32,000 nucleotides of DNA from Candidatus Saccharimonadota bacterium (GTDB taxonomy: Bacteria > Bacteroidota > Bacteroidia > Cytophagales > Amoebophilaceae), in NCBI RefSeq assembly GCF_003351905.1, contig NZ_CP022339.1:240001-272000 (forward strand), given 5' to 3'. Position numbers and translations under genes: made by a program. Positions 1,954 to 24,305 of the stretch are shown piece after piece. Position 1 is the stretch's first letter; each line of letters opens with the position of its first letter. The notes beneath the pieces were generated by a model that was not told the origin of the DNA, did no database searches, and saw only the letters and a program-made list of their open reading frames with translations.

Positions 1954-2301
1954 ATGATTTATATGCAGCAATATACGATAGAACCCATACAATATGCCGT
2001 ATTACACATCACTAAATATAAAGAAACAGGCAGCATAGGCACACATATAGACAGAAAAAATTTGACTCAAAATGTAGCACACTTTAAAAGCGATATAGAC
2101 CCAGCAATGCGTGAATTATTAGGCCACCATATTGATCATACACGCACGCATCTAAATGAAGAATTATCGCCTCTAAAAAAAGAAAACTTAACAAAAGACA
2201 TTCATAGCAGAATACAATCAGGATACAAAGGTAACAAAGAAATTAGAAAAGATGCCGTTAAAGCCTTAGGTATTATATGTAGTAGTCAAGATTTAATCTG
2301 A
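1954..2301 (+). pseudogene. MobV-family relaxase, 3'-truncated remnant (first ~108 codons only)
   Basis: The N-terminus is almost identical to the 649-aa relaxase at 16847..18796 (MIYMQQYTI.PIQYAVLHITKYKETG.IGTH.DRKN...). Homology ends at 2277, after which 8 unrelated codons run to a stop. Confidence 0.85.
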
Positions 2302-3910: not shown

Positions 3911-5761
3911 TTACGAACACCTACCTATTAAAACATCTATCTCTTGGTTTATTTTTTTAAAGTTTTGCTCAATATCGACATGTTCATAAATCTCTTTTAA
4001 ATCCTTTAGTTTTTGATTTTCAAATTTTTTATCAAAACTACTGACCTTCTTTAAATTATATTTAAAGAAGGCTTGATTGCTTTCCACTACCCTTCCAGCA
4101 AACGTTCCCACTTTAAAATCCATAAAATCTTGCGGGGAAAGAATAGATTTTTCCTGTAGATGGGTACCCTCTCCAGCTGTTTCTGTACGACCACTTTGGT
4201 AATGACTAGTTGAGGTAGAAGAAGAAACCACTTTTTTTTCTTTTTTTCCCATCAGATGACTCGCCCAGTCAGCAGAAACCCCTTCTACATTGCCAATAAT
4301 CTTATTGACAAAGGTATCCTGTATACGTTTAGCGCCTATGCTACCGTAGGTATGTTCTAACTGTGCATTAGATTATAGGCAAGCCACTGTGCTGATGCCA
4401 TATTTTCTAGCAGTAGCCGGTAGCTCTGCTAACTCTGGAATAAATAATGTAGGCAACTCATCTATGGCTACAAAACTTTTGATTCTATTATGACCATACA
4501 TAGCTTTAAAGCAAACCGTTAGCAATAGCGAGATAACTGGTGAGAAGGCAGATTTAGCAGATGGATGATTACCTATACATAGGATCGTTGGTTTTGCGCT
4601 ATCATTGATCGTTAAGTCTAAATCATCCCCGCTTAATACCCAAAATAAATCTTTATTTAAAAGTATTTGCAAATTCGTTTTAAAGGTAGCTATGACACCC
4701 ACCAACTGCCCAGCTGTTTTTTCTCCACCCTTAAAAGCATCCAAGATAGAACTAGCGTAACTAGCCGCTTCGTCATCTCTTTCAATCAATTGAAGTATGC
4801 TAGCAATAGGTTTGGTAGCCAGCACCAATACATGCGGTAAGGTACAGCACCTAGGTCTTCTATTGGCCAAAAAAACAATCATCCCTTTTAGCAATGCTTT
4901 GGTACTTAGGTTCCAAAAATCATCTTTTTTATCTGGAGCCAGGTTATGTAATAGTACACTAGTGTATTCCTCCAGGTAAGCCCTGTTTAGAATATATCTT
5001 GGCGCAATAGGGTTGATACGTATACTGAGTCTCAAGGAAGTAAAATTGATGCTATGGAATTGAAATTTAGTAGGATCACAGAACTGTAAGAAACAATTAA
5101 AAGCGAACTTGGTAAGACAGTAGTTAGGATCAGGTGTAGTCGGCCTTCCTTCAAAGTCATAATCATAGATGATGCCAGCATAACCCTTTTTTATTAATGC
5201 GTATACAATAGGCTCCAATATATAGCGTGTTTTGCCACTACCTTGGTTGCCTAAAATGTATATGCCCCTTTGTGGATTATTAATGGGCAATTGTCCATTA
5301 TATGCAGGTAATGTGATACTTTTATCTCTGTTTTGCGTCTTAGTAGGATTGATCAGTTGGAACTGACCCTCATCATTACCAAATGGAATCAGAAAGGTAA
5401 TTAATGCAAATAGCAAGGGATATAACCAGATATGAAAATTTCCTTTTACCCAAAAAATAGGGTAATAGATTAAATAACAACAGACAAGCACTGTCCAACC
5501 TAATATTAACAAACTGTTAAAGTGGCATTTTTGTTTAAGTCTTTCAATCAACCTAATAATTTTATCGTATTGATAGTGGAGTAAGCATAGTACGTATAGG
5601 CTATTAACCATCCAGTTATGTTGCACAGCTATACAATAAGATAAGAATGTAGCCAATGCATCAGGTATAAGTTGTATATCATTTAAATAGAGTAGGTGTA
5701 GGTAAAAAAACAGCTGATAGCCTATCAAAAAAGCAAATACTATAGAAATATTTTGGTTCAT
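3911..5761 (-). pseudogene. Type IV coupling protein (VirD4/TraG/TraD-like ATPase) interrupted by one in-frame TAA at 4373..4375
   Basis: ORFs 4373..5761 and 3911..4252 are in the same frame, and the 117 nt between them has no further stop. There are N-terminal TM helices, Walker A GNQGSGKT and Walker B AIDELP. The read-through is KYGISTVACL*SNAQLEHTYGSIG, so the stop sits where the family has the Q of its Q-S-x-x-Q-L motif. Confidence 0.8.
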
Positions 5762-5821: not shown

Positions 5822-6424
5822 ATGCATAAAATTTTTATAAATATGCATCATTTACGTAAAATATTTATGCTACTTTTAATGTTTTGTACTCCTTTACAAG
5901 GTAAAGAAAATTTAGAATATGGAACTAGTTATAGCATTACGCATATAAAAGAAGAGAAAGCGCCTTGTTTAAGGCATACAGAAGGTTGTAGATCTGTAGG
6001 GTTAGCTTGCAATAGAATGCCGCATCATCAGATATGGTATGGTATCTATTACCATAGGCATCTGAATGCATCGCTAGCCTTGCGCTTGAGTGGGGGGATT
6101 TCACTGGTTAAATTTAACTATAAAAACCATATGCGATGGGTCATTGCACCCTCGTTTTTATATACACTTTGTACTATAAATGCCGACCATTACATCAGTT
6201 TGTTTCTAGGGCCTATTGTAGAATATGGCCCTTATAAGGCTATTATTTTTGGATTACCAAATCGGAATGGGTGGGATATCAGAGCAGCCTTAGGAGCCCA
6301 TTATACTTTTTATTTCAATCAAAACTGGGCTATTGGCATAGGAATAGGCCCTTGCATTGGCTTGCTTAAAGATAAAGGAGCGAGCGGTCTATTGGCCAGT
6401 CTTTACTTACAATATAATCTATAA
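5822..6424 (+). CDS. Hypothetical exported protein, possibly a small outer-membrane beta-barrel
   Basis: 200-aa ORF with an N-terminal hydrophobic signal-like segment (IFMLLLMFCTPLQG). It shows alternating aromatic/glycine-rich strand-like segments and the C-terminal residues LYLQYNL. It is the first gene of the plus-strand tra cluster. The true start may be an internal ATG. Confidence 0.5.
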   Translation: MHKIFINMHHLRKIFMLLLMFCTPLQGKENLEYGTSYSITHIKEEKAPCLRHTEGCRSVGLACNRMPHHQIWYGIYYHRHLNASLALRLSGGISLVKFNYKNHMRWVIAPSFLYTLCTINADHYISLFLGPIVEYGPYKAIIFGLPNRNGWDIRAALGAHYTFYFNQNWAIGIGIGPCIGLLKDKGASGLLASLYLQYNL

Positions 6425-6544
6425 AGTAACTGATTGAGTTGTGTAAATAGTACATCAAACTTAATAAATAGCTATAAAAACTCGCCTTAATATAAAAATA
6501 ATAAACAAATCGTAATTGTCAAACATTTCAATAGGTATTCAACG

Positions 6545-7948
6545 ATGCATCCATTTATCTATTTATTCAAACTATTCTTAGTGATCATTTTGACCACTTT
6601 GCAAGCTTGTTTTTTCCATAGGGGAGCTCAACAAAACTTATCGAAGCAGATACCAAGTTATACTGTTTCACTTAGGTCAAATAACCAGAAAGGTTATTTT
6701 GAAGATCAAATGATTCCTATAGATATGTTGTTTGCATCTCAAGATGAAAATATAAAAAACAATGGTATGGGTTTTAGGATTAAAAAGATATCTATAGAAG
6801 GAATCTCAGGCCATTTAGAAACAGAAGATGGAGATCTATTAGGGGATGGATATGATTTTGTCTATAAGGATGATGGCTATCCATTATTTTTTATACCAGC
6901 AGTTGATGAAGATAGTGGCCATTGTACCATTACCTTAGACACCCTATTGATAGATAAGTATGGCAATGAGGCACCTGAATCTACCCATAAATTAGCAACC
7001 TACGGGTTATACATTTGTCACAAAAAAGCTATAAAAAAATCAATCCAAGAAGAAGAAATAAAATGTTCAGAAACTTTAAAGCCATTAAGTGAAGATCATT
7101 CTATTGTTATTAACAATAGTAAACTACGCACCACTACCGTTTCATTAGAAGACAATGGTTATCCATTTCAAGATCCTGGATTTTTTGCCCAGATTTCCTG
7201 CAATAAAAATATTTCTTTAACGGTAGGAGGGAAGCATTTAACAGGCGATGAAGAATGGATTCTAGATACTTGGTATTTTAAAGGCCTGGTAGCAGGTAGC
7301 TTGTATGATGTATCAACTAATCATAAGATTACTACACCATTAAAGTTACAAGTGGGTACTATTTATATAAGCTGCCGAGCAGCTATTGAAAATCTATCTG
7401 GTAGTCCAATAGTAGTTTTAGCTATCATCCATCCAGACGGTCGAAAAAAAGAGATACAAATAGATGTTTCTAGTATCATACTGCCCATATTAGAAGCCAA
7501 ACTAAATAAATATACAACATTACTTTCAGATTTAATTTACACTACAACAGACCCAGATATTAGGGATAAAACCATCAAAGCATCCAAGGAAATTATTGTT
7601 AAGATGGGATACCTACTAGGGAAAGAAGACGAAGAAGAAAAAACAAAAATAGAGTCAATCATTAAGGACTATGACACATTTTTAAAAGAAAACCAAGCTC
7701 GTTTTGAAAATGCTGTACGTGCCTCTGAAATATTATCCGTAGCAAACGCTGCCATAAGGGATAGCGTTGTTTTCGAAGAAAATAAATACATACCTGCTTG
7801 GCGTGAAGAGGACCAAAAAGAAATCACTGAGTTCCTTAATGAAGTGGAGGATAGTCCTGAATTATTTAGCCATTTATCGAAAACTATTGAAAAAATTAGG
7901 GAACAGTTAGAGACTATCGATCTCCATTTCTATAAAGATGATGAATAG
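6545..7948 (+). CDS. Hypothetical lipoprotein with an acidic, coiled-coil-like C-terminus
   Basis: 467-aa ORF with a signal peptide ending in a lipobox-like LTTLQAC. No family recognised. Confidence 0.6.
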   Translation: MHPFIYLFKLFLVIILTTLQACFFHRGAQQNLSKQIPSYTVSLRSNNQKGYFEDQMIPIDMLFASQDENIKNNGMGFRIKKISIEGISGHLETEDGDLLGDGYDFVYKDDGYPLFFIPAVDEDSGHCTITLDTLLIDKYGNEAPESTHKLATYGLYICHKKAIKKSIQEEEIKCSETLKPLSEDHSIVINNSKLRTTTVSLEDNGYPFQDPGFFAQISCNKNISLTVGGKHLTGDEEWILDTWYFKGLVAGSLYDVSTNHKITTPLKLQVGTIYISCRAAIENLSGSPIVVLAIIHPDGRKKEIQIDVSSIILPILEAKLNKYTTLLSDLIYTTTDPDIRDKTIKASKEIIVKMGYLLGKEDEEEKTKIESIIKDYDTFLKENQARFENAVRASEILSVANAAIRDSVVFEENKYIPAWREEDQKEITEFLNEVEDSPELFSHLSKTIEKIREQLETIDLHFYKDDE

Positions 7949-8041
7949 CTGTCTATATCAAGGAGGTTTGTCGTCTTGAAAAGGACTAAAAAAGATGTAA
8001 GCATCACTTACATATGATCAACTCTAAAACATTAATCATCT

Positions 8042-8275
8042 ATGGCATTACACGACAACTTAGAAGAATTAAAAGACTGGGCTAGTAGTATAACCAATAC
8101 CATATTTATTATTGCGGCCACCGTTACAGGCTTGATGGTAGCAGCTAAATTCATCAATAGCAGGGATAAAAAGGAAGCGATGAGTTATGCGATTTGGTGG
8201 ATAGTAGGCATTTTCTTTTTCTTTGTCTGCTCTTCTATCATTTCAGAGATTATGGATATGTTTGGTAATCAATGA
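8042..8275 (+). CDS. Small two-TM protein, TraE-like (VirB2-like position) of Bacteroidota conjugative elements
   Basis: 77 aa with two hydrophobic helices. It lies immediately upstream of, and overlaps by ATGA, the next small membrane gene and the VirB4 gene, as in the CTnDOT-type traE-traF-traG order. Confidence 0.55.
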   Translation: MALHDNLEELKDWASSITNTIFIIAATVTGLMVAAKFINSRDKKEAMSYAIWWIVGIFFFFVCSSIISEIMDMFGNQ

Positions 8276-8583
8276 TGATCGTTAATAAAAGCATAGAAAA
8301 AAGAGGGATGATAGGCCCTCTTTACACCCATGAAGCATTGCTACTGGTACTCTTTAGCATGATTACTCTCTTTGGGCTAATGGTTTTAAATAAAATCTTT
8401 AAGATCAGTAAGCTATGGATGCTAACTTGTCCTGCTTTATTTTTTCTGCTATTGATACTACTCAGATATATGAGAAAAAATAAAAACCCTACCTACTTGT
8501 TTTCTTGGATGGCTTTTCATTTCAAGCAACCTAAGTATATAAACGCAAAAAACAGCAAGCTGTGTTACAAGAAAAATATATAG
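8272..8583 (+). CDS. Small membrane protein, TraF-like (VirB3-like position)
   Basis: 103 aa with two TM helices. Its start overlaps the upstream stop (ATGA) and its end overlaps the VirB4-like gene. Confidence 0.5.
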   Translation: MMIVNKSIEKRGMIGPLYTHEALLLVLFSMITLFGLMVLNKIFKISKLWMLTCPALFFLLLILLRYMRKNKNPTYLFSWMAFHFKQPKYINAKNSKLCYKKNI

Positions 8584-10985
8584 AAAACTATATACCCATT
8601 GTTGAGTTTCAAGATGGGTGCATCATTTTGGAAGATGGAGCAGTGGCCATAGGCTATCAATTGAATCTATTTCCGGATGAAGGGGTAGGAGAGGAGGTTT
8701 ATAAAAATTGTATAGATAGCCTAGCACAAACCATTCGAAGATTTCCTATTGGAACCGTTATACAACAATTAGATAGCTATTCCAATAAAACATTTCATAC
8801 AAAGATCCAAAATGGCTACAACTTTTTTCATCAAAAGCAACTAGAACATTGTAATGGACATATTTTCTTAACCCATGTAACCTATCTATTCGTCATATGT
8901 AGGCCTACTACCCATAGCATAGAGCCGCATACCACTACTTTTTCTTGTGGAAAGGGTTACTTTAAACACCCACTGTCAGAACTAAAAAAAACAATAGATC
9001 AAGTAAAAAAATGCAGCCTAGAGTTAGAATCGGCCTTTCCAGATGGTTGCCAGTATAGACAGTTGACTGCGTCAAACAATCTTAGCTTGCTCTATGCCTA
9101 TTTAAACTTAGACTTTAGTGGCACCATAGATGGTTTAGAGCATGGCCTGACCAATCAAAAAGGATTTTTTAAAATTGGCAATAAGCAAGTAGCGATTGTA
9201 TCAATGCAAAGCCAATCGAATAAACCTGACTACACCAGTAAAAATGGGTTAGGCAATGGGGGAGGGGTAACCGTACCTTTTACTTGGGGGTTAAGCCACT
9301 ATATGAACTGCCCCCATATTGTTGTACAAGCGATTGCCATTCAAAATACAGAAGACTTTTTACAAAGCCGTTCCAAAGCATTAGAATGGAGCCAAGCGAC
9401 TAAGCGCAACAACCGAGAGATTCGTAATGTAAACCAAGATATGGAAGAACTGATTGCCTTTGAAGCAGCCATTAGAGCGCAAGAAGAAATCATCGTAACC
9501 CTTAACTATCTGGTTATCCTTTATGAAGTAGATCCCAAACAGCTCGCTGACAACATCGAAAAGGTTAAAAAAGTATTTAAAAAGCTAGATATGGCCCCTT
9601 TTGTAGAGGACTATGATACGACTAATCTATATTTTTCAGCGATACCTGGTAATGGCCATCAGCTTTATAGAGGGCAACCGATGGCACTTAAAACTGCACT
9701 AAGTTATTTCAATAAGATTACCCCTAGAAAGGGTGCGGATAATGGTATACTACTAGCCAGTAGACAACAAACGCCCATCTATTATGATCCATTTAATCTC
9801 AACTTAGACAACCAAAACGCTTTTGTCTTTGGCCCTTCTGGGTCTGGTAAATCTTTTTTTAATGGCAAAATGATCAAAGATCGATTTCAATCAGGTCATA
9901 TAGTCATTGTGATAGATAGTGGAGGTACCTACAGAAGGCTTTTTCAAATATTAGGCGGGAAGTATATAGAATACAATGCAGCAACACCGCTCCATTTAAA
10001 TCCATTTCTGATCAAACCTGAATCAAATGGCCTATTTAAACCAGATATCAACAAGATAACTTTTCTGGTACAACTGATTGGAAAAATCTGGAAGGGAGAT
10101 TTAAATACAAACCCTATGAGTGAAGTAGACAAAGCGCTACTAGCTGGATGGATTCCCGAATATTATGCCACTTTGCATAAGGAATCTGTACCGAGTCTAA
10201 CTGGGTTTTATGATTATCTCAAAAAACTAGTAGATCAGAAAGACCAACAGGTTAAAAAATTAACCGATGAGGGATTGTTTCTATTTCATGAGTTTTTCAT
10301 TGTACTGCATCCTTTTGCACATGGGATCTATAAAAAGCATTTTAATTCCTACGAGCAGGTCTATTTAGAAGATCACAAACTGATTTGTTTTGAGCTAGAA
10401 GCGATCAAAAATAATCCTAAACTCTATCCTCTAGTCGTACAAGTGCTATTTGAGTTTGCCTTTGAAATCGTCGCCCAATATCCTGACGTGACTAAATTTA
10501 TTGATATTGAAGAAGGATGGACCATGTTGGATGATTATGCCGAAGAAAACATTGAAGCCTTTTTTAGAAAAGGCAGAAAAACCAAAACTTCCATTCGGAT
10601 CATTACCCAAAACATAGATGAAATTAAAGCCTCTAAAATAGCTGGTGCCATGAAAAACAATGCCTCCACTTTTATATTGCTTTACAATGAAAAAAAATCC
10701 AGCAGGGAAGATATTGGGGACTTTATCGGAATGACCCCCTTTGAAATGGAAAAATATGAAAGCTTAAGACGAAAAAATGGTTCAGATGGTTATAGAGAGG
10801 TCTTTATAAAAGAAATGGGAGATTCTAATATATGGCTGCTCCAAACATCTCTTTGGGAACATGCATTACTCACCTCTAGGCCAGATGAAAGAAACGCTAT
10901 TACCAGACTCATTCAAGAGAAAGGAGATGCCCAATTGGGTATTGCCGAATGGGTAGATGGGCAACGAAAACTACAAGCTAAGTAG
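8562..10985 (+). CDS. traG: Conjugative transfer ATPase, VirB4 family (TraG in Bacteroides CTn nomenclature)
   Basis: 807 aa with Walker A FGPSGSGKSFF and Walker-B-like region KFIDIEEGW. Size and position after two small membrane genes fit. The annotated start is a GTG overlapping the upstream gene, so the start is uncertain. Confidence 0.9.
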   Translation: MLQEKYIENYIPIVEFQDGCIILEDGAVAIGYQLNLFPDEGVGEEVYKNCIDSLAQTIRRFPIGTVIQQLDSYSNKTFHTKIQNGYNFFHQKQLEHCNGHIFLTHVTYLFVICRPTTHSIEPHTTTFSCGKGYFKHPLSELKKTIDQVKKCSLELESAFPDGCQYRQLTASNNLSLLYAYLNLDFSGTIDGLEHGLTNQKGFFKIGNKQVAIVSMQSQSNKPDYTSKNGLGNGGGVTVPFTWGLSHYMNCPHIVVQAIAIQNTEDFLQSRSKALEWSQATKRNNREIRNVNQDMEELIAFEAAIRAQEEIIVTLNYLVILYEVDPKQLADNIEKVKKVFKKLDMAPFVEDYDTTNLYFSAIPGNGHQLYRGQPMALKTALSYFNKITPRKGADNGILLASRQQTPIYYDPFNLNLDNQNAFVFGPSGSGKSFFNGKMIKDRFQSGHIVIVIDSGGTYRRLFQILGGKYIEYNAATPLHLNPFLIKPESNGLFKPDINKITFLVQLIGKIWKGDLNTNPMSEVDKALLAGWIPEYYATLHKESVPSLTGFYDYLKKLVDQKDQQVKKLTDEGLFLFHEFFIVLHPFAHGIYKKHFNSYEQVYLEDHKLICFELEAIKNNPKLYPLVVQVLFEFAFEIVAQYPDVTKFIDIEEGWTMLDDYAEENIEAFFRKGRKTKTSIRIITQNIDEIKASKIAGAMKNNASTFILLYNEKKSSREDIGDFIGMTPFEMEKYESLRRKNGSDGYREVFIKEMGDSNIWLLQTSLWEHALLTSRPDERNAITRLIQEKGDAQLGIAEWVDGQRKLQAK

Positions 10986-10987
10986 CG

Positions 10988-11827
10988 ATGGAATATCTAT
11001 CTGTGCACTATGTTTCCAGTGAGGTTTGGAGTGTTATGCGGCAAGTTACCAAGACCACAACAGAAATTGCGTTGTTCTTACTGCCTACCTTTGTAAGCAT
11101 TGATTTTTGCGTGCGATACATCAAAGAGGGATTAAATGAAATCAGTAGTAAAGCGGCCATTATAGAAAATATTGCTAAAGGGATGGTATTGACGCTATTG
11201 CTCTGCCACTTCGAAGAGATCAATGAGTTATTAGATAGGATAACTAGCGCACTAATTGATCAATTGGGCTTGAATCAGGCCATGAAAACATATCTAGAAG
11301 CACAAAAAGAAAACCTAGAGAACAATCAAGCAGATGGGTTTTGGGGATCAGGTAACTATATCATTCAATCGATACTCAATAAAATCAAGAATGTTGTATT
11401 GGGATTTTTACAAATGTTTTCCAGAGGGGTAATGCACGCCATAAGGGGTTATTTACTCGTTTTTTCTACCCAAATAGGGCCACTAGCCATTGCCATGAGT
11501 GCCCTGCCAGGTAGGTATCAAAAAATAGCCGCTAATTGGTTTAGCTTGCATCTCTCTTTTTTTATGTGGGGGGTCACGATGGCACTAATAGACCTAAGCA
11601 TTATTCAGTTAAATATCAAAACGGTAGCGGGGTGCGATATGTTAAACTTAATAGGGGCGGTAGCATTAGTAGCCATGTATTTAATTGTGGGTACCATTAC
11701 AGGATTGTATATAGGAGAGATGATGGGTGGCACGATTTTTACCACTGTAACCAGTTTTGCCATACATCAAATCGTAGCAACTGGTAAACAAATCTATAAA
11801 CTTAAAAAAAAGAGATTAAATGGTTAA
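10988..11827 (+). CDS. traJ: Polytopic membrane protein, TraJ-like (VirB6-like)
   Basis: 279 aa with multiple TM segments. It starts 2 nt after the traG stop and overlaps the next gene by 8 nt. Its position matches traJ of Bacteroidota conjugative transposons. Confidence 0.65.
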   Translation: MEYLSVHYVSSEVWSVMRQVTKTTTEIALFLLPTFVSIDFCVRYIKEGLNEISSKAAIIENIAKGMVLTLLLCHFEEINELLDRITSALIDQLGLNQAMKTYLEAQKENLENNQADGFWGSGNYIIQSILNKIKNVVLGFLQMFSRGVMHAIRGYLLVFSTQIGPLAIAMSALPGRYQKIAANWFSLHLSFFMWGVTMALIDLSIIQLNIKTVAGCDMLNLIGAVALVAMYLIVGTITGLYIGEMMGGTIFTTVTSFAIHQIVATGKQIYKLKKKRLNG

Positions 11828-12479
11828 CGTAGATGCATTCAATAGTTATAAGCTCAGTAGGCTGATACAGCGTATACAATATTTATGCATAGGGGTTGTT
11901 GTTATTTTAACGGGCTTAACTTGTTTCTTTGCTGCCAAATGGATAAGTGCTATAAACAGTGACTTAACCTACTTTGTAACGCCAGAAGGTAGCTATTGTA
12001 GCCAAAAAAGAAAACAATTGATTCGAAGGGAACCCTTTGAAATAGAAAATTTTACGATTCAGTTTCTTAAAAATGCTTTTGAGCATAATGAATATACCTA
12101 TCAAGCTAACTTACTAGCCTGTCTACAGGTTATGGATAAAAAAAGTGGTCTGTTTCTAAAAAGCAAATACAATGAAGAGGAGGTCTTTCAGGTATATAAA
12201 AGCTATAACGGTATATCCACTTTGTCCGTTGAACAGATAGAAACCAACCTGATGGATTATCCATACGAAGTAGTAGCCTTTTACACGACTACTTTGCAGT
12301 TCTTGGGATTAGAAGGCAAAAAGCTTAGCGGATTAGATCATAAAAAATTACCCGGAGGGGTCTATTTTAAATTGAAAACAATCCACAGAAGTAAAGAAAA
12401 TCCATATGGATTGCTCATTACTGAATTTACTTTCGTTGACCCTAAAAATAAGCGTGAATATGTGCAAAATAATACGTAA
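11820..12479 (+). CDS. traK: TraK-like (VirB8-like) bitopic protein
   Basis: 219 aa with a single N-terminal TM (IGVVVILTGLTCFFAAKWI) followed by a globular domain. Position and size match traK. Confidence 0.6.
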   Translation: MVNVDAFNSYKLSRLIQRIQYLCIGVVVILTGLTCFFAAKWISAINSDLTYFVTPEGSYCSQKRKQLIRREPFEIENFTIQFLKNAFEHNEYTYQANLLACLQVMDKKSGLFLKSKYNEEEVFQVYKSYNGISTLSVEQIETNLMDYPYEVVAFYTTTLQFLGLEGKKLSGLDHKKLPGGVYFKLKTIHRSKENPYGLLITEFTFVDPKNKREYVQNNT

Positions 12480-13245
12480 CCTACTAATAGGTTGTCTTTT
12501 TTGTTTGAACGCTCAAGCAAAAATAACCAGTTATACTCCTTTAGAGGAGATACAAGTTGCGCATCGATTTTCCTCGATGCTATTGTTTGATGAGGCTATT
12601 AAAGAGGTCATTATGCCTAATAAAGATTATATCGCTAATGTCAACCAAAACATGGTCTTGTTGCGGGCTACCAAACCAGGTACGGCTGCTACTTCTATAG
12701 TGGTCACCTTTAAAAAGGGGAATAAGGTCTTTAATGGCCTATTGCGATCTACCCATAAACCGCAAGAAGTCTATGATTTTACAAGTAAAGAGGAAGAAGA
12801 GGCTAGCCCCCATCCTACATTAGACCATCAGGTATTACAAAAAATAAAACAGATTCAATCAATGGATCAAACCTATTTTAATATAGGCAAGCATACCAGG
12901 TATTATGACCTTATCCTTACCAATTTATTTCATGATGAGGAACATACCTACCTAAAAGTATATTTAGAGAACAAAACAGGTTTAACCTTTGAACTCTTTG
13001 AAACCAATTTCCAGCACTACAATAGTAAAAAAAGTAGAAAACTTGTTTTTCCTATATATGGCTTAGAAGATCGAGTCATACCGGCTTATAGCAGTAAAAT
13101 GTTTGTCTATGTTTTACCACGCTATACTACATCTACTAATGGTAACCTATTAGTCCACTTTGTGGAACAGTCTGGTAGTCGTTTGGTGAACTTATCTATA
13201 CCTGCGCGTCTACTTTTAGAAGCACCCTACTATGGTAAAGGGTAA
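12460..13245 (+). CDS. traN: TraN-like (DUF4138/VirB9-like) periplasmic protein
   Basis: The likely start is the internal ATG at 12460 (MCKIIRNLLIGCLFCLNAQA signal peptide). Beta-rich segments resemble TraN (MVLLRATKPGTAATSIVVTFKKGNKVFNGLL; HTYLKVYLENKTGLTFEL). It precedes traM, whereas the Bacteroides order is M then N. Confidence 0.55.
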   Translation: MCKIIRNLLIGCLFCLNAQAKITSYTPLEEIQVAHRFSSMLLFDEAIKEVIMPNKDYIANVNQNMVLLRATKPGTAATSIVVTFKKGNKVFNGLLRSTHKPQEVYDFTSKEEEEASPHPTLDHQVLQKIKQIQSMDQTYFNIGKHTRYYDLILTNLFHDEEHTYLKVYLENKTGLTFELFETNFQHYNSKKSRKLVFPIYGLEDRVIPAYSSKMFVYVLPRYTTSTNGNLLVHFVEQSGSRLVNLSIPARLLLEAPYYGKG

Positions 13246-14071
13246 ATATCTATTACTGGTTGTCATTGGTGCTATTGTAACCTTTGGAAAGATCTTTGTG
13301 GGCAAACGCAAAATAGAAAATTTTAACCCTGTAAATATGAGCGTGTCAGACTTTCAGGAAGTTAAAAAAAATGATACCAAAACATTACTGGATGCATATG
13401 ATGAAGAGCTATCTGGTAAAAAAGAATCGCTCCTAAAGAAAACTTCTAGAAAGGGGATCTCTTCACTAGCTGGCCTCTTTAACCTAAAACCTTTAGAAAA
13501 ACCTAAAAAACCTAAAAAAGAAAAAACTATGGTTGCGAAATTACCTAAAAAAACTAATATTAAAGCAGCACCAAGCCAGGGTTTTATTTCCTATCAAGAC
13601 AACCCAAAAGAAGAAATTTTGAATACCTTCTACCGTGCCCACTTAGAAGAAAATCAAAAAGTAACAGATGAAAGTGCTGTAATCCTTAAACTAGAAGAAA
13701 ACGGTATCATTGACGAAACGATGTTACCAGCGGGTACGGTTTTATACGGAAAAGCTAAATTTGCTAAAAATAGGATTTTAGTGGCCATTCATGTAGCCCA
13801 ATATCTAGATAGGACCTTCCCAGTCTCTTTAGTTTGTTACGATACTGATTTCCTACCTGGCCTCTTCTGCGAAGGTGTAAATCCTATTATTGAAACCAAC
13901 AGCCATAAAGTATTAGATATGATCATCGATCAAGCCGATTCGGGCTTAGCCAGTGAAGTCAGTAAAATGGCTACCCAATTCATTAAAGATGTAACCAAAA
14001 CCAAGTCCTTTAAACTGCATAAAGGTAGAGAGGTATATGTTTGTGCAGTAAAACAATTAAAAAATAAATGA
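13232..14071 (+). CDS. traM: TraM-like (VirB10-like) protein
   Basis: N-terminal TM, a K/P-rich linker (KPLEKPKKPKKEK) and a C-terminal block matching my recollection of the TraM C-terminal domain (VILKLEENGIIDETMLPAGTVLYGKAKFAKNRILVAIHV...PVSLVCYDTDFLPGL). Confidence 0.7.
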   Translation: MVKGKYLLLVVIGAIVTFGKIFVGKRKIENFNPVNMSVSDFQEVKKNDTKTLLDAYDEELSGKKESLLKKTSRKGISSLAGLFNLKPLEKPKKPKKEKTMVAKLPKKTNIKAAPSQGFISYQDNPKEEILNTFYRAHLEENQKVTDESAVILKLEENGIIDETMLPAGTVLYGKAKFAKNRILVAIHVAQYLDRTFPVSLVCYDTDFLPGLFCEGVNPIIETNSHKVLDMIIDQADSGLASEVSKMATQFIKDVTKTKSFKLHKGREVYVCAVKQLKNK

Positions 14072-15003
14072 AAAGATATTTATGGGTAGTGTTTCTATCA
14101 ACAGCTACTGTAGCTTATGCAGGAGATAAATGGGATAAAGCCAAAGAAACCCTTAAAGATGTGGTCAGCAGTACGTTAGATTATATACCATTTGGTAGTA
14201 CAGTCAAAAAACTATTTGGCAAGCAAGATAAACAAGTAGACCTTCTAAAAACGATTGCAAAAACAGAACAAAGCACCTTTGATAAAATCAGAGATACAGC
14301 CCGAACAGCTATGGAAACCAAAAGAGCCATAGAAAAGGCTGGTAAAGCGGTAAGAGATGCGGTTAACTTAGGTAAAAAACTCAAAAATATGAGCTTTAAA
14401 AAAATGATCTTAGGCCAAACAGAAGATCTATTGGGCATTAGTTTAAACCCTGCTCGGTATATACCGGAAACAAAATATACCCATAAACTTAAAAAGAACA
14501 TGAAATATAGCTGTGCAAGAGAAAAACAAACCATTCATTCAGTGAATAGATTTCTAAAGAATACAGGTAAATTAGTAGGCATCAAAGTAACAAATGGAAA
14601 ATATACCGATTTGAAAAAACTTAATGAAGAGATCGAAAAATCGATTCAATATGATCGTACGGTGGGGGAATATGCCCATACCAAACAGTTACTCCTAGCA
14701 GACGCTTACCAAAGGGAAGCCGATGAATTACTAGCCAATAATAAAGAAATTCAGTATTTATTAGATGATGATGCAGCGGGTCTTAAAGTCAATGAACGGC
14801 TAGCAGCTTATAATTTGCTGCAAAAAAATATCATTTCCTCAACAAAACTTAAAGAAAAAGCTGTAAAATTACGAGAGAAGGCTTCTACTTTAACTAAAAT
14901 TGACCAGCAAGTTATCGCAGCTGAGCAAGATCGGCTTGCTTGGAAAAGTATGGTAACATACGAAATTGATGAAAGAGAGAGAAAAAGAAATCAAAATAGA
15001 TAA
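14068..15003 (+). CDS. Exported coiled-coil protein, last gene of the tra operon; function unknown
   Basis: 311 aa with a signal peptide (MKRYLWVVFLSTATVAYAG) and a K/E-rich helical sequence. Its start overlaps the traM stop (ATGA). A paralogous 3' end is at 1..108. Confidence 0.6.
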   Translation: MKRYLWVVFLSTATVAYAGDKWDKAKETLKDVVSSTLDYIPFGSTVKKLFGKQDKQVDLLKTIAKTEQSTFDKIRDTARTAMETKRAIEKAGKAVRDAVNLGKKLKNMSFKKMILGQTEDLLGISLNPARYIPETKYTHKLKKNMKYSCAREKQTIHSVNRFLKNTGKLVGIKVTNGKYTDLKKLNEEIEKSIQYDRTVGEYAHTKQLLLADAYQREADELLANNKEIQYLLDDDAAGLKVNERLAAYNLLQKNIISSTKLKEKAVKLREKASTLTKIDQQVIAAEQDRLAWKSMVTYEIDERERKRNQNR

Positions 15004-15004
15004 A

Positions 15005-16642
15005 ATGATGCGTAAGATAGATGCACTCCCTATTGGCTATTCAGATGTTGAAAGGGTTATCCGAACAGGCTACTATGTAGATAAAACCCGATATGCACAA
15101 GAGCTAATAGAAAAAGAAAATCCTGTATTTATAGCTCGGCCTCGTAGATTTGGGAAATCGTTGTTTATTGATACACTCGCTAACATATGTAGCGGAGAGA
15201 ATGAAGTGTTTAAAGATTATCATATAGGTAGGCCAGAAAATGGATATGAGTGGAAGAAATATCCTATAATCAAAATAGATTTTTCAAGCATAAATCACAA
15301 TCCGAACTGTTTAGAAAACAGCTTAAAAGATGAGTTAACTAGAGTAGCTCGTTCATATGGTGTGGCTATTCAAACGCAAGATATACAAAGTGGACTAAAA
15401 GATTTAGTAGAAGTACTTTCAAAACTCAGTAATGGTTATGAATCCAGCATCGTGGTGCTTATAGATGAGTATGACGCTCCAATGGTCAATTTGAAGAAAG
15501 GATCCGATTTAGAAAAGGCCAATATCAAAGTCATGAAAGATTTTTTTATGACTTTAAAATCACTTAATAAACGTTTTAAGTTTACCTTTGTCACTGGCGT
15601 AAGCAAATTCAGTTTATCCGATGTATTTTCAGGAGCCAATCATTTAAAAGATATCACCATTGATGCATCTGCAGATGCGATGTTTGGTTATACCCAGCAA
15701 GAAGTTATAACGATATTCTCAACAAACTTAGAAGATATTGCTAAAAAATGGAGTACAAAAGAAAATAAAAAAATAACTCAATCAGAGGTAATGGGACAGA
15801 TTGCAACCTATTATAATGGATATAAGTTTTATGAAGATGGTTTAAGTGTATATAATCCCTGGTCTACGCTAAGATTTTTAGACACTGGTAAACTAGCAAA
15901 CTATTGGTATGAATCAGGAAGCCCAAGCCTACTGGTTAACCAGATGTTAGCAGATCCTGACAGGTTTGATATTCAGGTAGATAATCTTCAAATAGAAGCT
16001 ACCAGAGATGATCTCATGTATACAGAAAGTAGAAATGAGATTAGTTTAAAGTCTCTAATGTTTCAAACGGGGTATTTAACCATTCATAATTATGATGATT
16101 TTACTGGGCTATACATCCTAAAATTCCCTAACAAAGAAATAGAGGTCTCTTTTCAGAAAAGCATACAATCCAGTTTGGAAAAGAGTGTAAAAGATTATTT
16201 TTTACAAGAACGAGATAAAATTAGAAAGGCACTAGCTGACAAAAAAATTGAAACCTTTATAGAATACATTAATACAGCCTTTGCTACGCTTCCTTACTAT
16301 ATCGATAGTGGCCAGGAAAAACAATACCACAGCAATTTACATATGCTGCTGCAGGGCTTAGGATTTTTAGGTGGGAGAAAAATGCATATGCATAGTGAAT
16401 CAGTTTCTAGTCAAGGCAGATCAGATATCGTTTTAGAACTAGAAACAGCCATTTACATTATAGAAATCAAATATAAATCCAGTGGAAAAATGGCCTTACA
16501 ACAAATCAAATCAAACAGTTATTATAAACCTTATTTACTTAGACAAAAAGCCATTATACTACTAGGCATTAACTTCAATGAGGAAACCAGGATGATAGAT
16601 AACTGGGCATATGAAATCCATGAAGACCATATAAAACAATAA
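15005..16642 (+). CDS. AAA-ATPase-like plus PD-(D/E)XK nuclease-like protein, paralog 2
   Basis: Start chosen at ATGATG (15005) by alignment with paralog 1; the ORF track begins at 14966. Same ARPRRFGKSLF, LIDEYD and GRSDIVLE...IIEIKY motifs. Confidence 0.85.
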   Translation: MMRKIDALPIGYSDVERVIRTGYYVDKTRYAQELIEKENPVFIARPRRFGKSLFIDTLANICSGENEVFKDYHIGRPENGYEWKKYPIIKIDFSSINHNPNCLENSLKDELTRVARSYGVAIQTQDIQSGLKDLVEVLSKLSNGYESSIVVLIDEYDAPMVNLKKGSDLEKANIKVMKDFFMTLKSLNKRFKFTFVTGVSKFSLSDVFSGANHLKDITIDASADAMFGYTQQEVITIFSTNLEDIAKKWSTKENKKITQSEVMGQIATYYNGYKFYEDGLSVYNPWSTLRFLDTGKLANYWYESGSPSLLVNQMLADPDRFDIQVDNLQIEATRDDLMYTESRNEISLKSLMFQTGYLTIHNYDDFTGLYILKFPNKEIEVSFQKSIQSSLEKSVKDYFLQERDKIRKALADKKIETFIEYINTAFATLPYYIDSGQEKQYHSNLHMLLQGLGFLGGRKMHMHSESVSSQGRSDIVLELETAIYIIEIKYKSSGKMALQQIKSNSYYKPYLLRQKAIILLGINFNEETRMIDNWAYEIHEDHIKQ

Positions 16643-16741
16643 ATTTCTTATTGAATCTTATTCAAAGAACATAAGACTACTGCACAAAAAACAACTACTT
16701 TTTCCCATACAGTTTACATATAAATGTAGGCTACTTTTTCA

Positions 16742-16775
16742 AAAGTATAGCACACTATACTTTACTACGTAAAGT
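16742..16775. promoter_or_regulatory. Candidate MobV-type oriT (copy B), upstream of the intact relaxase
   Basis: Identical AAAGTATAG-CACA-CTATACTTT hairpin (16742..16763) and an overlapping ACTTTAC-TAC-GTAAAGT hairpin (16759..16775), ~85 bp upstream of 16847. Confidence 0.6.
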
Positions 16776-16846
16776 GTATCCACACGAACGCTCTATATCT
16801 TCAATTTCGTTAGTCTATAATCAAGCAAAAGGGAAAGAAATTTCCC

Positions 16847-18796
16847 ATGATTTATATGCAGCAATATACGATACAACCCATACAATATGCCGTACTACAC
16901 ATCACTAAATACAAAGAAACAGGCAGAATAGGCACACATCTAGACAGAAAAAATTTGACTCAAAATGTAGCACACTTTAAAAGCGATATAGACCCAGCAA
17001 TGCGTGAATTATTAGGCCCCCATATTGATCATACACGCACGCATCTAAATGAAGAATTATCGCCTTTAAAAAATGAAAGCTTAACAAAAGACATTCATAG
17101 CAGAATACAATCAGGATATAGAGGGAATAAGGAAATTAGAAAAGATGCCGTTAAAGCTTTAGGTATTATACTGACCGGAAGCCATGAACGGATGAAAGCA
17201 ATTGAGCAAGATGAAAAATTGTTTAATGATTGGAAAAGAGCAAATTACGGGTTTGCTTGTCGGGAATTTGGCTCAGAAAATATCATTCGCTTTACGCTAC
17301 ATAGGGATGAAAAAACACCTCATATACACTGCGTAGTAGTCCCGATCTGTAAAGACGGTAGATTAAGCGCCAAAAGCTTTATGAGCGGGTCTCATATGCT
17401 GATGGCGTATCAAGATAGGTATGCAAACGCGATGAATAGGTTTGGATTAAATAGAGGAATAGCTAAACATCTAACAGAGCGTAGCCATATACCGATCGGG
17501 CAATTTAGAAAAGAAACGCTTAAAAAGAAACAGGAAATAATGCTCTCTGTTACATCAGATATACCCAGGCCTAATCTACTAAACTTTAAACAAGTACACC
17601 AAAATATTGCTAATCAACTTTGTGCGTATGCTTATGAAGCTGAAAAACAGAAACTAAAAGCATTAGAAACAGAAAAAACCTATAGCAATATCATCAAAGA
17701 AAACATACGATCAGATTTAGATCGTGTCAAACGAGAGGTTAACTTAATACAACATGCTGCTTCTATGGGCTACCAGCTTAATAAAGCTAAAAGCTCAAGA
17801 TTATGGGCAGTAATGGATAAAGATGGAGACAAAATATTGATTAGGAATGGTCTCAATAACAATGGCTACTGGACCTATACCTCTCTAGTAGATGATAAAG
17901 ATAAAGGCACTATAATAGATTTTATGCTAAAACGTGGTTTTAGTTATAAGGAGATTCGTGGATTGAATAGTATCCATTTGGATGATACTGTGATCAAAAA
18001 TCAAAGTTCACTGGAAAATGATTTGAAAAATTTATCGGTACAAGAAAAACTAGCCAAAGCCTACTTTTGTAGTATTGTCTATAAAAAAGAAGATAATTAT
18101 TTAACCAGCCGTGGTATTGCACCATCAACCTATGGTCCTTATATCGGTATTTCTTTGCAAGTAGGTAGAAAAGCGGTATTTGGTCTCTATCAAGGATTAA
18201 ACAATCAAGGAAATGGAACGATGTGTAGCACTATTTCCTACCAGTTTTTTACAGACAATACTGGAAAAATAGAAAGTAGAAAATACTTTCAAAAAGGGCT
18301 TTCTAGAGGGTTAGCTGTATTAAAGCATCCCAATTTTCCTGTGAAAAAGATTGTGTTCACAGAGAGTCCTATAGATGCCCTAAGTCATAAACAGCTTTAT
18401 GCAGAGAAAGATAGTACGATGTATATCGCTACTTGTGGTACTATGTCTAATAGTATCATTAAAGAAATCAACAACCTATTGAAAGAAGCTAAACAGCATA
18501 GCCAAGAAGTAGTATTGGCTTTTGATATAGATCAAGCAGGTCAACGTATGCAAAAACTAATAGAAAATATTTCTAAACAAGAGGGTATACAACCTACTAA
18601 AATGTCTGTAACTTCAGGAAAAGACTGGAATGAACAACTGCAACAGAACTTAACTGGTCAGGCTATGAATTTCCTTTTACAACTGCAAAAGTCTATTGCT
18701 AGGGATATCCGATCCAACTGTTCGATTGATGAATATCAAAAATCAAGAAAAAAGGAAATAGCGTATATCGATAAATATGTCGGAATAGAACTCTGA
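16847..18796 (+). CDS. MobV-family (Mob/Pre) relaxase fused to a C-terminal Toprim primase-like domain
   Basis: N-terminal YAVLHITKYK...THLDRKN and the metal motif HRDEKTPHIHCVVVP (H-x-D-E-x-x-P-H-x-H) mark the relaxase. C-terminal VFTESPIDALSH (Toprim Glu) and LAFDIDQAGQ (DxD) mark the primase. A region resembling the DUF3991-type linker (GTIIDFMLKRGFSYKEI) lies before the Toprim domain. Confidence 0.85.
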   Translation: MIYMQQYTIQPIQYAVLHITKYKETGRIGTHLDRKNLTQNVAHFKSDIDPAMRELLGPHIDHTRTHLNEELSPLKNESLTKDIHSRIQSGYRGNKEIRKDAVKALGIILTGSHERMKAIEQDEKLFNDWKRANYGFACREFGSENIIRFTLHRDEKTPHIHCVVVPICKDGRLSAKSFMSGSHMLMAYQDRYANAMNRFGLNRGIAKHLTERSHIPIGQFRKETLKKKQEIMLSVTSDIPRPNLLNFKQVHQNIANQLCAYAYEAEKQKLKALETEKTYSNIIKENIRSDLDRVKREVNLIQHAASMGYQLNKAKSSRLWAVMDKDGDKILIRNGLNNNGYWTYTSLVDDKDKGTIIDFMLKRGFSYKEIRGLNSIHLDDTVIKNQSSLENDLKNLSVQEKLAKAYFCSIVYKKEDNYLTSRGIAPSTYGPYIGISLQVGRKAVFGLYQGLNNQGNGTMCSTISYQFFTDNTGKIESRKYFQKGLSRGLAVLKHPNFPVKKIVFTESPIDALSHKQLYAEKDSTMYIATCGTMSNSIIKEINNLLKEAKQHSQEVVLAFDIDQAGQRMQKLIENISKQEGIQPTKMSVTSGKDWNEQLQQNLTGQAMNFLLQLQKSIARDIRSNCSIDEYQKSRKKEIAYIDKYVGIEL

Positions 18797-22466: not shown

Positions 22467-24305
22467 ATGGATTATAAAAAAGAAGAGAAAAAACTAAAAA
22501 GAGCGGAGCAACGAGTAGATGCTACCGAAAGTGTACAAATCCCCATTGGGAAGGCCAGTGTTAAGCAAATGATAGAGGCTGGATTTTACGCAGATAAGAC
22601 TTCTTATATTACTAAACTTTTTAAAGATGAGGGAACTTATTACTTCTTTACAAGACCACGAAGATTTGGTAAATCTCTACTACTAGACACCATAGATCAA
22701 ATAGCAAAAGGAAATAAAGAATTGTTTAAAGGGTGCGCTATTTATAAAGATCAAACCTATAGGTGGAAAAAATATCCAGTTATTTGGTTGAACTTCTCAA
22801 AGTTGGCTAAGGATAATCCAGAAAAACTACAAAATAACTTGATAGATGTATTATATACGTTTGCTAAGAATCATAATATAAGTAGAAGTGAAATAGATCC
22901 CATTATAGGTGAGCCGACCGTAGAGGGTACACTGGAAAAGTTGATTAATGCATTAAAAAAACTAGGTAATGGTTATGAACCTACACCTATTATCTTAATT
23001 GACGAATATGATAGTCCATTAATCTCTTGCGAAAAAGAGAAGTATGAAGGAGTGCTTGCTGTCCTTAGTTCATTTTTTAAAGTTTTAAAAGGCAGTCAGA
23101 AGGACTGCAAATTTATCTTTGTCACCGGCGTAACTAAATTTCACCTATCTGGACTTACCTCAGGGGCAAACTCGGCTAATGACATATCATTGCATGAGGA
23201 TTATGCAGAGATGTTGGGCTATACAGACAAGGATATTGAAAAGTTATTCTTTAATGACAAACACACATATATTAATACAGTCATAATAAATCTAAGGGAA
23301 AATTGGTACAAAGGAGAAAGCTATACAGACGAACAATTAAAACAAGAGTTAAAAGATTATTATAACGGCTACTGTTTTAGTCGAAATAAGGGTATCAAGC
23401 GGATGTATAATCCAGACTCTATATTGAAATTTTTTCGAGATAAAGCATTTGGTAATTACTGGTCCAACTCTGGTAATCCTGCCATCTTACTACAACAAAT
23501 AAGAAATGATATCAATAGGTTTACAATCGCTTGGAATAAGTCCAGTCTTGCAATCAATAAGCTGGATTTTGAAAATTTAGCAGGCTCTCTTTCCAAGATA
23601 CCATTACTCCCTTTAATGTACCAAACAGGTTATCTTACCCTAGATCCTAATGGATTTAAAGAGGACATACGAGAAGATAAAAACGCAACGGACTACTATT
23701 TAAAGTTTCCCAATGAAGAGGTAAGATCTGCTTTAAAGTCAACCTTAATTAAGATTATGGACGAAGTCCAGGAGGAAACAGGTAAACAATATAGCACTTC
23801 GATTCTTAATACTTTAAGAAATAAAAAGTGGTCTGTCTTTCTTAACTATATTCGAAGTGATTGCTTAGCTAAAGCAGGCTATCGTTTTCTAGATAAAACA
23901 GAGAGGAGTTTTCAAAGGGCTTTATATTTATTTCTAAATGGTGTTTTTCATGCAACGCATGATATGCAGACTAGTGCTGAATCCGACAGTGGCATAGGCC
24001 GCACAGATATCGTTATGGAGGACCATAGAAACGACCAAAGAGCTGTCTATATCTTTGAGTTAAAAATAGATAGACCAGCGCTGGAGGCTTTAACACAAAT
24101 ACACAGTAAAGATTACAGTATTAAATATGGTTCATGTAGTGAAAAAATCCTGATAGGGATAACCTGTGATGCTGCAAAACTTAATATAACAGAGGCAATT
24201 GTTCAAGTACATCAAAAAGATGAGCAAGATAATTTTAGAGAAGTTGTTTATACACACTTTACAGTTGACCAGTCTGGTTATTTTAAAGAGGTAATAAACC
24301 AATAG
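22467..24305 (+). CDS. AAA-ATPase-like plus PD-(D/E)XK nuclease-like protein, divergent paralog 3
   Basis: 612 aa with TRPRRFGKSLL, LIDEYDSP and C-terminal GRTDIVME...VYIFELKI. Same architecture as 113..1750 and 15005..16642 but much more diverged. Confidence 0.8.
   Translation: MDYKKEEKKLKRAEQRVDATESVQIPIGKASVKQMIEAGFYADKTSYITKLFKDEGTYYFFTRPRRFGKSLLLDTIDQIAKGNKELFKGCAIYKDQTYRWKKYPVIWLNFSKLAKDNPEKLQNNLIDVLYTFAKNHNISRSEIDPIIGEPTVEGTLEKLINALKKLGNGYEPTPIILIDEYDSPLISCEKEKYEGVLAVLSSFFKVLKGSQKDCKFIFVTGVTKFHLSGLTSGANSANDISLHEDYAEMLGYTDKDIEKLFFNDKHTYINTVIINLRENWYKGESYTDEQLKQELKDYYNGYCFSRNKGIKRMYNPDSILKFFRDKAFGNYWSNSGNPAILLQQIRNDINRFTIAWNKSSLAINKLDFENLAGSLSKIPLLPLMYQTGYLTLDPNGFKEDIREDKNATDYYLKFPNEEVRSALKSTLIKIMDEVQEETGKQYSTSILNTLRNKKWSVFLNYIRSDCLAKAGYRFLDKTERSFQRALYLFLNGVFHATHDMQTSAESDSGIGRTDIVMEDHRNDQRAVYIFELKIDRPALEALTQIHSKDYSIKYGSCSEKILIGITCDAAKLNITEAIVQVHQKDEQDNFREVVYTHFTVDQSGYFKEVINQ

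Follow-up and report, generated by a model that had tools for sequence, protein, structure and literature searches.

A probable MOBV-type oriT upstream of a MobV-Toprim relaxase in a Cardinium-like endosymbiont chromosome

A hairpin at positions 16742-16775 of the window (the whole 32,000-nt stretch of DNA analysed here) probably marks an oriT. Its sequence suggests a nic region that would be recognised by the adjacent MobV-Toprim relaxase and would serve an MPF_B-like element in the chromosome of a Cardinium-like endosymbiont, a reading to which we give a probability of roughly 0.8. What carries it can be observed directly: homology to the oriT of Firmicute plasmids, the architecture of the hairpins, covariation in their stems, a position and orientation kept across a family of loci, the identity of the relaxase and the linkage of the site to transfer genes. 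The result amounts to a precise prediction of oriT and nick for the conjugative elements of Cardinium-type symbionts, which manipulate the reproduction of their hosts and currently lack genetic tools; a functional oriT-relaxase pair would be the minimal part needed for delivering DNA to them or for tracing horizontal gene transfer.

The hairpin and its pMV158 counterpart

The hairpin is supported, from its sequence, as a homologue of the oriT core of pMV158 and other MOBV1 plasmids, formerly known as the Pre/RSA site of pUB110, pE194 and pT181-type plasmids. The plus strand at 16742-16775 (copy B) reads AAAGTATAGCACACTATACTTTACTACGTAAAGT. The minus-strand reading, shared by this site and a second one at 1850-1883 (copy A, also on the minus strand), is ACTTTACGTAGTAAAGTATAGTGTGCTATACTTT; it contains AAAGTATAGTGTGCTATACTTT, the bottom-strand hairpin that a preliminary description of this DNA had given correctly. 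Along the minus-strand stretch over copy B (GGATACACTTTACGTAGTAAAGTATAGTGTGCTATACTTTTG) the order is IR1 (ACTTTAC-GTA-GTAAAGT), an 8-nt spacer (ATAGTGTG), the predicted nick and the right arm of IR2 (CTATACTTT). A 22-mer of this core, with Y at its variable position and up to three mismatches allowed, occurs at two places in the window, both on the minus strand, and gave 0 chance matches in 100 dinucleotide-preserving shuffles. A PWM scores both copies at 33.5 bits, the next best position in the window reaching 7.6; the matrix was built from related sites, including the hits that it scores, so that values for the stronger sites are inflated and somewhat circular. The block 16741-16778 shows no change across copies A and B and the closest genome locus, that of the Cardinium symbiont of Nabis limbatus (L005), whose oriT site is identical, while the flanks vary.

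Comparison with pMV158 was based on published oligonucleotide sequences. The pMV158 ORIT 42-mer is GCACACACTTTATGAATATAAAGTATAGTGTG/TTATACTTTA (PMC3105389), in agreement with the core given in the preliminary description, and the minus strand aligned to it reads GGATACACTTTACGTAGTAAAGTATAGTGTGCTATACTTTT: 33/42 positions match, and 13/13 are identical before the nick. Judged by the pMV158 nick region, GTATAGTGTG/T, the 10 nt before the nick are identical and a C stands for the T after it, in line with the earlier statement that the stem and GTGTG are preserved with one change past the nick. The same T-to-C change is found in natural Firmicute MOBV plasmids, such as B. cereus pE33L5 (GTGTG/C). 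In pMV158 itself IR1 is ACTTTATGAATATAAAGT and IR2 is TAAAGTATAGTGTG/TTATACTTTA (PMC3105389), and the two differences in IR1 (T to C, A to G) are compensatory. A blastn search of 16690-16850 against 72,556 plasmid records matched 648, which align only at query 53-88, that is, at the hairpin. These records come nearly all from Firmicutes (Enterococcus 407, Staphylococcus 48, Bacillus 38, Streptococcus 32, and others), 519 of them are predicted to be mobilizable, and the best identity, 36/37, is reached by records that include a Bacillus cereus MOBV plasmid. Alignment with MOBV oriTs thus bears out the similarity first proposed.

A stable hairpin about 100 nt downstream of a stop codon could also terminate transcription of the AAA-ATPase gene upstream, or could be an AT-rich palindrome that arose by chance. 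A terminator scan, however, did not call it; its stem is AT-rich and is followed by no T-run, and an Rfam search of the site gave no relevant match. Chance is opposed by the empty shuffles, and both explanations by the recurrence of the motif upstream of MobV genes in unrelated contexts, including plasmids of 3-5 kb. The comparative data effectively refute them. On the minus strand at 16744-16782 there are sigma-70-like -35/-10 hexamers, as often as chance would give; one has an extended -10 TG, and they are directed away from the relaxase gene.

An overlapping second hairpin had been proposed from the outset, and it is real: IR1, with a 7-bp stem and a 3-nt loop, ends 8 nt before the predicted nick and is the counterpart of pMV158 IR1. 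IR2 (AAAGTATAG-TGTG-CTATACTTT; 16742-16763, minus strand) forms 9/9 pairs and spans the predicted nick, with an energy of -5.6 kcal/mol (z = -7.8). The left extension of IR3 (GATAC; 16776-16780, minus strand) makes 4/5 pairs with the GTGTG before the nick, one of them T.G, and is weaker than in pMV158, whose left arm is CACAC. Folded as single-stranded DNA, the minus strand is more stable than all of its shuffles (z = -3.97). Its most stable hairpin is IR2 and not IR3, unlike in pMV158, for which the IR1/IR3/IR2 design was described (PMC5863519); the IR3 hairpin is not the minimum-energy structure here, although relatives have a full IR3 with covariation. Because IR3 is weak and IR2 dominant, the “IR3 to IR1 switch” of MobM may not apply as described.

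Where would such a site be cut? Homology with the ORIT 42-mer predicts a minus-strand nick that separates the complement of 16751 (G) from that of 16750 (C), the counterpart of pMV158 G3595/T3596, and one at 1859/1858 in copy A. The hairpin bound by an HUH relaxase lies 5' of its nick, and the nick is placed on the minus strand because only there does an unpaired conserved TAGTGnG lie 3' of the hairpin. The minimal single-stranded target of MobM is “IR1+8” (PMC3105389), and footprinting found that IR1/IR3 plus 8 nt are used and that IR2 is not extruded (PMC5863519), so that the older model in which MobM nicks within the hairpin loop, repeated in the preliminary description, is superseded. By analogy with MobM, an autorepressor that binds IR2 in double-stranded form (PMC5863519), IR2 is likely to be a double-stranded binding (operator) site.

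Polarity and relatives in Bacteroidota

In pMV158 the oriT precedes mobM, and it is the coding strand of this gene that is nicked and transferred (PMC5863519). The homologue of the nicked strand is likewise the mob sense strand in 5/5 informative Firmicute plasmids (L001, L002, L003, L085 and L086). In the window the site is upstream of the relaxase gene, the end of the hairpin region being 71 nt, the end of the 22-mer 83 nt and the predicted nick 96 nt from the ATG at 16847, and the pMV158-like strand is antisense to that gene. Judged by homology, the site departs from the pMV158 arrangement, in which the mob coding strand is the one nicked; the preliminary description was right about the homology of the core and overlooked its antisense orientation. 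Its spacing of about 80-85 bp before each relaxase start fits copy B and lapses for copy A, which has no intact relaxase gene behind it.

The inversion extends to the relatives. Among 80 Bacteroidota loci that code for relatives of the relaxase, all turned so that the relaxase is on the plus strand, the core AAAGTnTAGTGnG/CTAnACyTT was found in 28 distinct loci (30 when two identical pairs are counted), and in every one of the 28 it is antisense. From the core to the beginning of the relaxase match is 78-394 nt, and scores are 14-34 bits where the 99th percentile of the null is 10; the consistency of position and strand across loci is free of the circularity of the PWM. Pairing was counted in each sequence from the nick, since MAFFT mis-registers IR1 in sequences with shorter loops. 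In this count the nick usually comes 7-9 nt after the end of a 5' hairpin whose stem covaries between loci, as in AAGGCGTAG/CTACGCCTT of C. hertigii. Covariation also links the last 5 nt ahead of the nick to the left arm of IR3 (GTGGG/CCCAC, GTAGG/CCTAC, GTGAG/CTCAC and ATAGG/CCTAT), as it does in Firmicutes (GTGCG/CGCAC and GTGTG/CACAC).

Could the relaxase instead cut the plus strand, its own sense strand, with a nick at some other point, perhaps near GTATCCAC on the 3' side of the IR1 complement? The mob coding strand is the one nicked in all characterised MOBV1 plasmids examined (PMC5863519), hairpins are equally possible on either strand, and the plus strand folds slightly better (-9.8 versus -8.4 kcal/mol). 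However, TAGTGnG in the place that HUH relaxases require is a feature of the minus strand alone; on the plus strand, what follows the hairpins on their 3' side differs from locus to locus and only covaries as an arm of IR3; and the PWM gives the minus strand 33.5 bits at the site and the plus strand 19.7. A plus-strand cut is thus very unlikely, and with a nick on the minus strand transfer would run towards lower coordinates. The nicked strand being antisense to the relaxase gene, that gene would be the last to reach the recipient.

A recurrent motif, AAGCCCTAATGAG/CTATGGCTT, lies about 147 nt upstream of the relaxase match, again antisense, in MobV loci of Bacteroides, Phocaeicola and Parabacteroides (L044, L045, L049, L051, L061, L074, L083 and similar ones). 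It may, tentatively, be a diverged homologue of the same nic region; its PWM score of about 4 bits is under the null 95th percentile. Modules of the Bacteroidota type also occur on small contigs assigned outside the phylum: Desulfovibrio sp. OH1186 (L030), a Stigonema MAG (L039), a Suipraeoptans MAG (L041) and a Peribacteria MAG (L017). The site and flanks of the Desulfovibrio contig are the same as those of a Prevotella contig (L029), and these cases suggest contamination or binning error, or else a broad spread of plasmids.

The polarity of oriT relative to the relaxase gene thus differs systematically between Firmicutes and Bacteroidota, which affects the genes that enter first and how tools for oriT prediction should search. 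In a literature search on oriT orientation and on MOBV with MPF_B, flipped polarity was not discussed; the texts on the Tn4555 and Tn5520 oriTs were outside its scope. A bolder generalisation, which we regard as possible but doubtful, is that Bacteroidota carry a phylum-wide, undescribed “flipped” MOBV relaxase-oriT module that sends its own gene last, and that in Amoebophilaceae and Cytophagales this module is Toprim-fused and resident in self-transmissible MPF_B elements and is not a mobilizable hitchhiker. If that were true, the near-identical nic core could allow Bacteroidota elements and the Firmicute plasmids of insects or guts to recognise one another's oriTs across phyla.

The relaxase, the tra genes and the fate of the element

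The gene downstream of copy B (16847-18796, plus strand) is, by its sequence, a genuine MobV relaxase, with a Mob_Pre domain at residues 59-220 and a Toprim primase domain at about 502-602. Mob_Pre (PF01076) matches at 104 bits against a cut-off of 25.5, and the MobM structure (PDB 4LVI) is matched at E=1.7e-13, or 7.4e-22 with a family profile. Motif I, HxxR, is H31-L-D-R34 and motif III is HRDEKTPHIH at 152-161, after the published definitions HxxR (with the catalytic His) and HxDExxPHxH (PMC3105389); H31, R34, H152, D154, E155, H159 and H161 do not vary in 16 diverse relatives. H31 is equated with the MobM nucleophile only by its position in the HxxR motif, because the HMMER alignments start past it, and the alignment from the family-profile search against PDB likewise stops short of the N-terminal histidine. 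The ORF is full-length at 649 aa and has all the catalytic motifs; the identical database protein has 646 aa, which places the annotated start at ATG 16856 and not at 16847.

Its relatives are Mob_Pre-Toprim fusions of Candidatus Cardinium, Amoebophilus and other Cytophagales. The fusion to a DnaG-like Toprim primase is kept in well over 60 relatives among the matches listed (Cardinium, Amoebophilus and other Bacteroidota), and it suggests a primase that is delivered with the T-strand. The relaxase domain is 29% identical to Firmicute MobV proteins, so that identical specificity is not guaranteed, and relaxases this far apart beside sites that are 36/37 identical point to deep conservation of the nic region and not to recent transfer of a whole module. 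The MOBV nic core appears to be conserved across phyla far more strongly than the relaxase that acts on it.

The site sits among transfer genes. A divergent Bacteroidota-type T4SS operon occupies 5822-15003 on the plus strand and includes, on the same strand, TraG/VirB4 (8562-10985; P-loop_TraG, 200 bits) and genes like TraK (11820-12479), TraN (12406-13245; DUF4138/TraN, 37 bits) and TraM (13232-14071; Transposon_TraM, 88 bits). P-loop_TraG, Transposon_TraM and DUF4138/TraN exceed their Pfam cut-offs; the NCBIfam models Bac_Flav_CT_G/K/M/N match, all of them under their curated cut-offs. Between the operon and the oriT lies a gene with AAA-ATPase_like and PDDEXK_9 domains (14966-16642, plus strand), one of three paralogues in the window (113-1750, 14966-16642 and 22467-24305), two of which belong to a duplicated unit; it could be a selfish, accessory or leading-region gene. 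The duplicated unit runs from the last part of the tra operon through the AAA-ATPase/PDDEXK gene and the oriT site to the relaxase, and its copy A begins at the left edge of the window. The order of tra genes, AAA-ATPase gene, site and relaxase recurs in the Cardinium symbiont of Nabis limbatus, and in six further loci a coupling protein (T4CP) gene lies within a few kb of the relaxase. Farther along the window uvrB indicates that the region is chromosomal. A 744-aa protein (26616-28850, minus strand) with two WH2 (actin-monomer-binding) motifs is a eukaryote-like feature consistent with an effector of an intracellular symbiont.

The description of two sites, each ahead of a relaxase gene, needs amending: the sites are identical, but the relaxase gene of copy A (1954-2301, plus strand) is truncated to a 115-aa fragment. 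Its homology to copy B ends at about 2279, and an IS256/Mutator-family transposase gene (2633-3871, plus strand) adjoins the truncation point. The Bacteroidota MobC-type T4CP gene (4373-5761, minus strand) is also probably truncated. Its ORF covers profile positions 190-489 of 655 and stops there, so that the T4SS cannot be credited with an intact coupling protein of the MPF_B kind; it is probably a pseudogene, a product of the rearrangement beside the IS256-type element. A short ORF downstream of it (3911-4252, minus strand) matched no family.

With its T4CP apparently truncated and the copy A relaxase disrupted, the element may no longer transfer. It is accordingly conceivable, though less probable than not, that the site is a genuine MobV oriT by descent that is now an inactive relic of a decaying element in a reduced endosymbiont genome, conserved only because duplication and divergence are recent. 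The T4CP ORF that ends at 489/655 next to the IS256-type element, the truncated copy A relaxase, tra genes that all score below the NCBIfam cut-offs and the general condition of Cardinium genomes, which are riddled with degraded transposases (PMC3486910), fit this picture. Against decay stand the full-length copy B relaxase with its complete set of catalytic motifs, intact tra ORFs with 87-93% protein identity to another, syntenic Cardinium genome, and a site that stays unchanged while its flanks vary.

The two sites lie in direct orientation, and 14,892 nt separate their predicted nicks. A round started at copy B and ended at copy A would free or pass on a 14.9-kb circle that holds the tra operon, the T4CP fragment and the IS and lacks the intact relaxase gene. 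The site might instead be mainly an operator or a site-specific recombination site of the “Pre/RSA” kind, used for autoregulation or for recombination between two identical direct copies. MobM does bind IR2 in duplex form and acts as a repressor at its own promoter (PMC5863519), and the Pfam family still bears the name “plasmid recombination enzyme”. Such activities would, however, be by-products of the same relaxase-oriT interaction and would leave transfer possible, and the T4SS and T4CP genes to which the module is linked in several genomes speak for conjugation. We consider an operator or recombination site as the main function unlikely.

How, then, would a nic region of this design work with its relaxase? 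By homology with MobM and pMV158, the minus strand of supercoiled or single-stranded DNA would extrude the IR1 hairpin, and the relaxase domain would bind this hairpin together with the next 8 nt, the spacer. H31 of the HxxR motif would then attack the minus-strand G/C phosphodiester at 16751/16750, which would leave the relaxase linked to the 5' end. The minus strand would be exported 5' to 3', with the AAA-ATPase gene first, the tra operon early and the relaxase gene last, and the covalently attached Toprim domain could prime synthesis of the complementary strand in the recipient. On double-stranded IR2 the relaxase may also act as a repressor of its own gene. Nick position and strand, the sequence in which genes enter, the part given to the primase and any present activity of the element are all predictions.

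Comparison with known transfer systems

The resemblance of an oriT across phyla is not new in principle. The title of a 1998 paper relates the oriT of Bacteroides Tn4555 to a Gram-positive plasmid family. One review classes the relaxases of Tn4555 and NBU elements as MobP (PMC5704250), and MobV relaxases are known in Bacteroides from Tn5520 (BmpH) and pBI143 (MobA). A 2018 BLAST survey of oriT_pMV158 found Bacillales, Lactobacillales and a few Enterobacterales, and no Bacteroidota. The present site is a very well preserved case of a known kind of oriT. Less expected is that several genomes of Amoebophilaceae and Cytophagales keep a MOBV relaxase stably linked to genes for a T4SS and a T4CP. 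In one survey 95% of MOBV relaxases were in mobilizable plasmids (PMC9185392), and since the family is regarded as typical of such plasmids, this linkage is of some interest. The combination of a MOBV oriT with a Bacteroidota T4SS, singled out early on as notable, is less singular than it seemed, given that title and the homologous sites ahead of MobV genes in 28 distinct Bacteroidota loci. Two more variant features are the fusion to Toprim and the flipped polarity.

With the oriTs of pMV158 and the MOBV1 plasmids the site shares the nick context AAAGTATAGTGTG/, the 7-bp IR1 stem, the 8-nt spacer, a 9-bp IR2 over the nick, the ACTTTA repeat and a location at most about 100 nt from the start codon of the relaxase; the proteins share the Mob_Pre fold family and the HxxR and HxDE..PHxH motifs. 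It differs from pMV158 in a G/C and not G/T dinucleotide, an IR1 loop of 3 nt and not 4, and a weakened IR3. The core is inverted relative to the relaxase gene and the relaxase is Toprim-fused. The host replicon is a Bacteroidota endosymbiont chromosome with T4SS genes of its own, whereas the MOBV1 systems are small mobilizable plasmids.

The small mobilizable elements of Bacteroides have in common with this locus their Bacteroidota hosts, MPF_B-mediated mobilisation and a Mob_Pre relaxase with the oriT directly upstream. Unlike it, they lack T4SS genes, their relaxases have no Toprim fusion, and their core is far more diverged from that of pMV158 (about 4 bits by the PWM, as against 33.5 for the window site).

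CTnDOT-type elements (MPF_B, with MobA, the MobB relaxase and the MobC T4CP) share the homologues of TraG/VirB4, TraK, TraM and TraN and a MobC-type coupling protein divergent from the tra operon. MOBB has been described as a Bacteroidetes-specific class (PMC3158045). The present element, in contrast to the CTnDOT type, has no MOBB or MOBP relaxase: its sole relaxase is the MOBV-Toprim protein at the far end of the tra operon, and its tra proteins are highly divergent, under the NCBIfam cut-offs. RSF1010 MobA, of the MOBQ family, joins an N-terminal HUH relaxase to a C-terminal primase that can ride the T-strand into the recipient. The layout of a relaxase-primase fusion is common to both proteins, but the family here is MOBV, with a histidine nucleophile, the primase is Toprim/DnaG-like, and the fusion is known here from its sequence.
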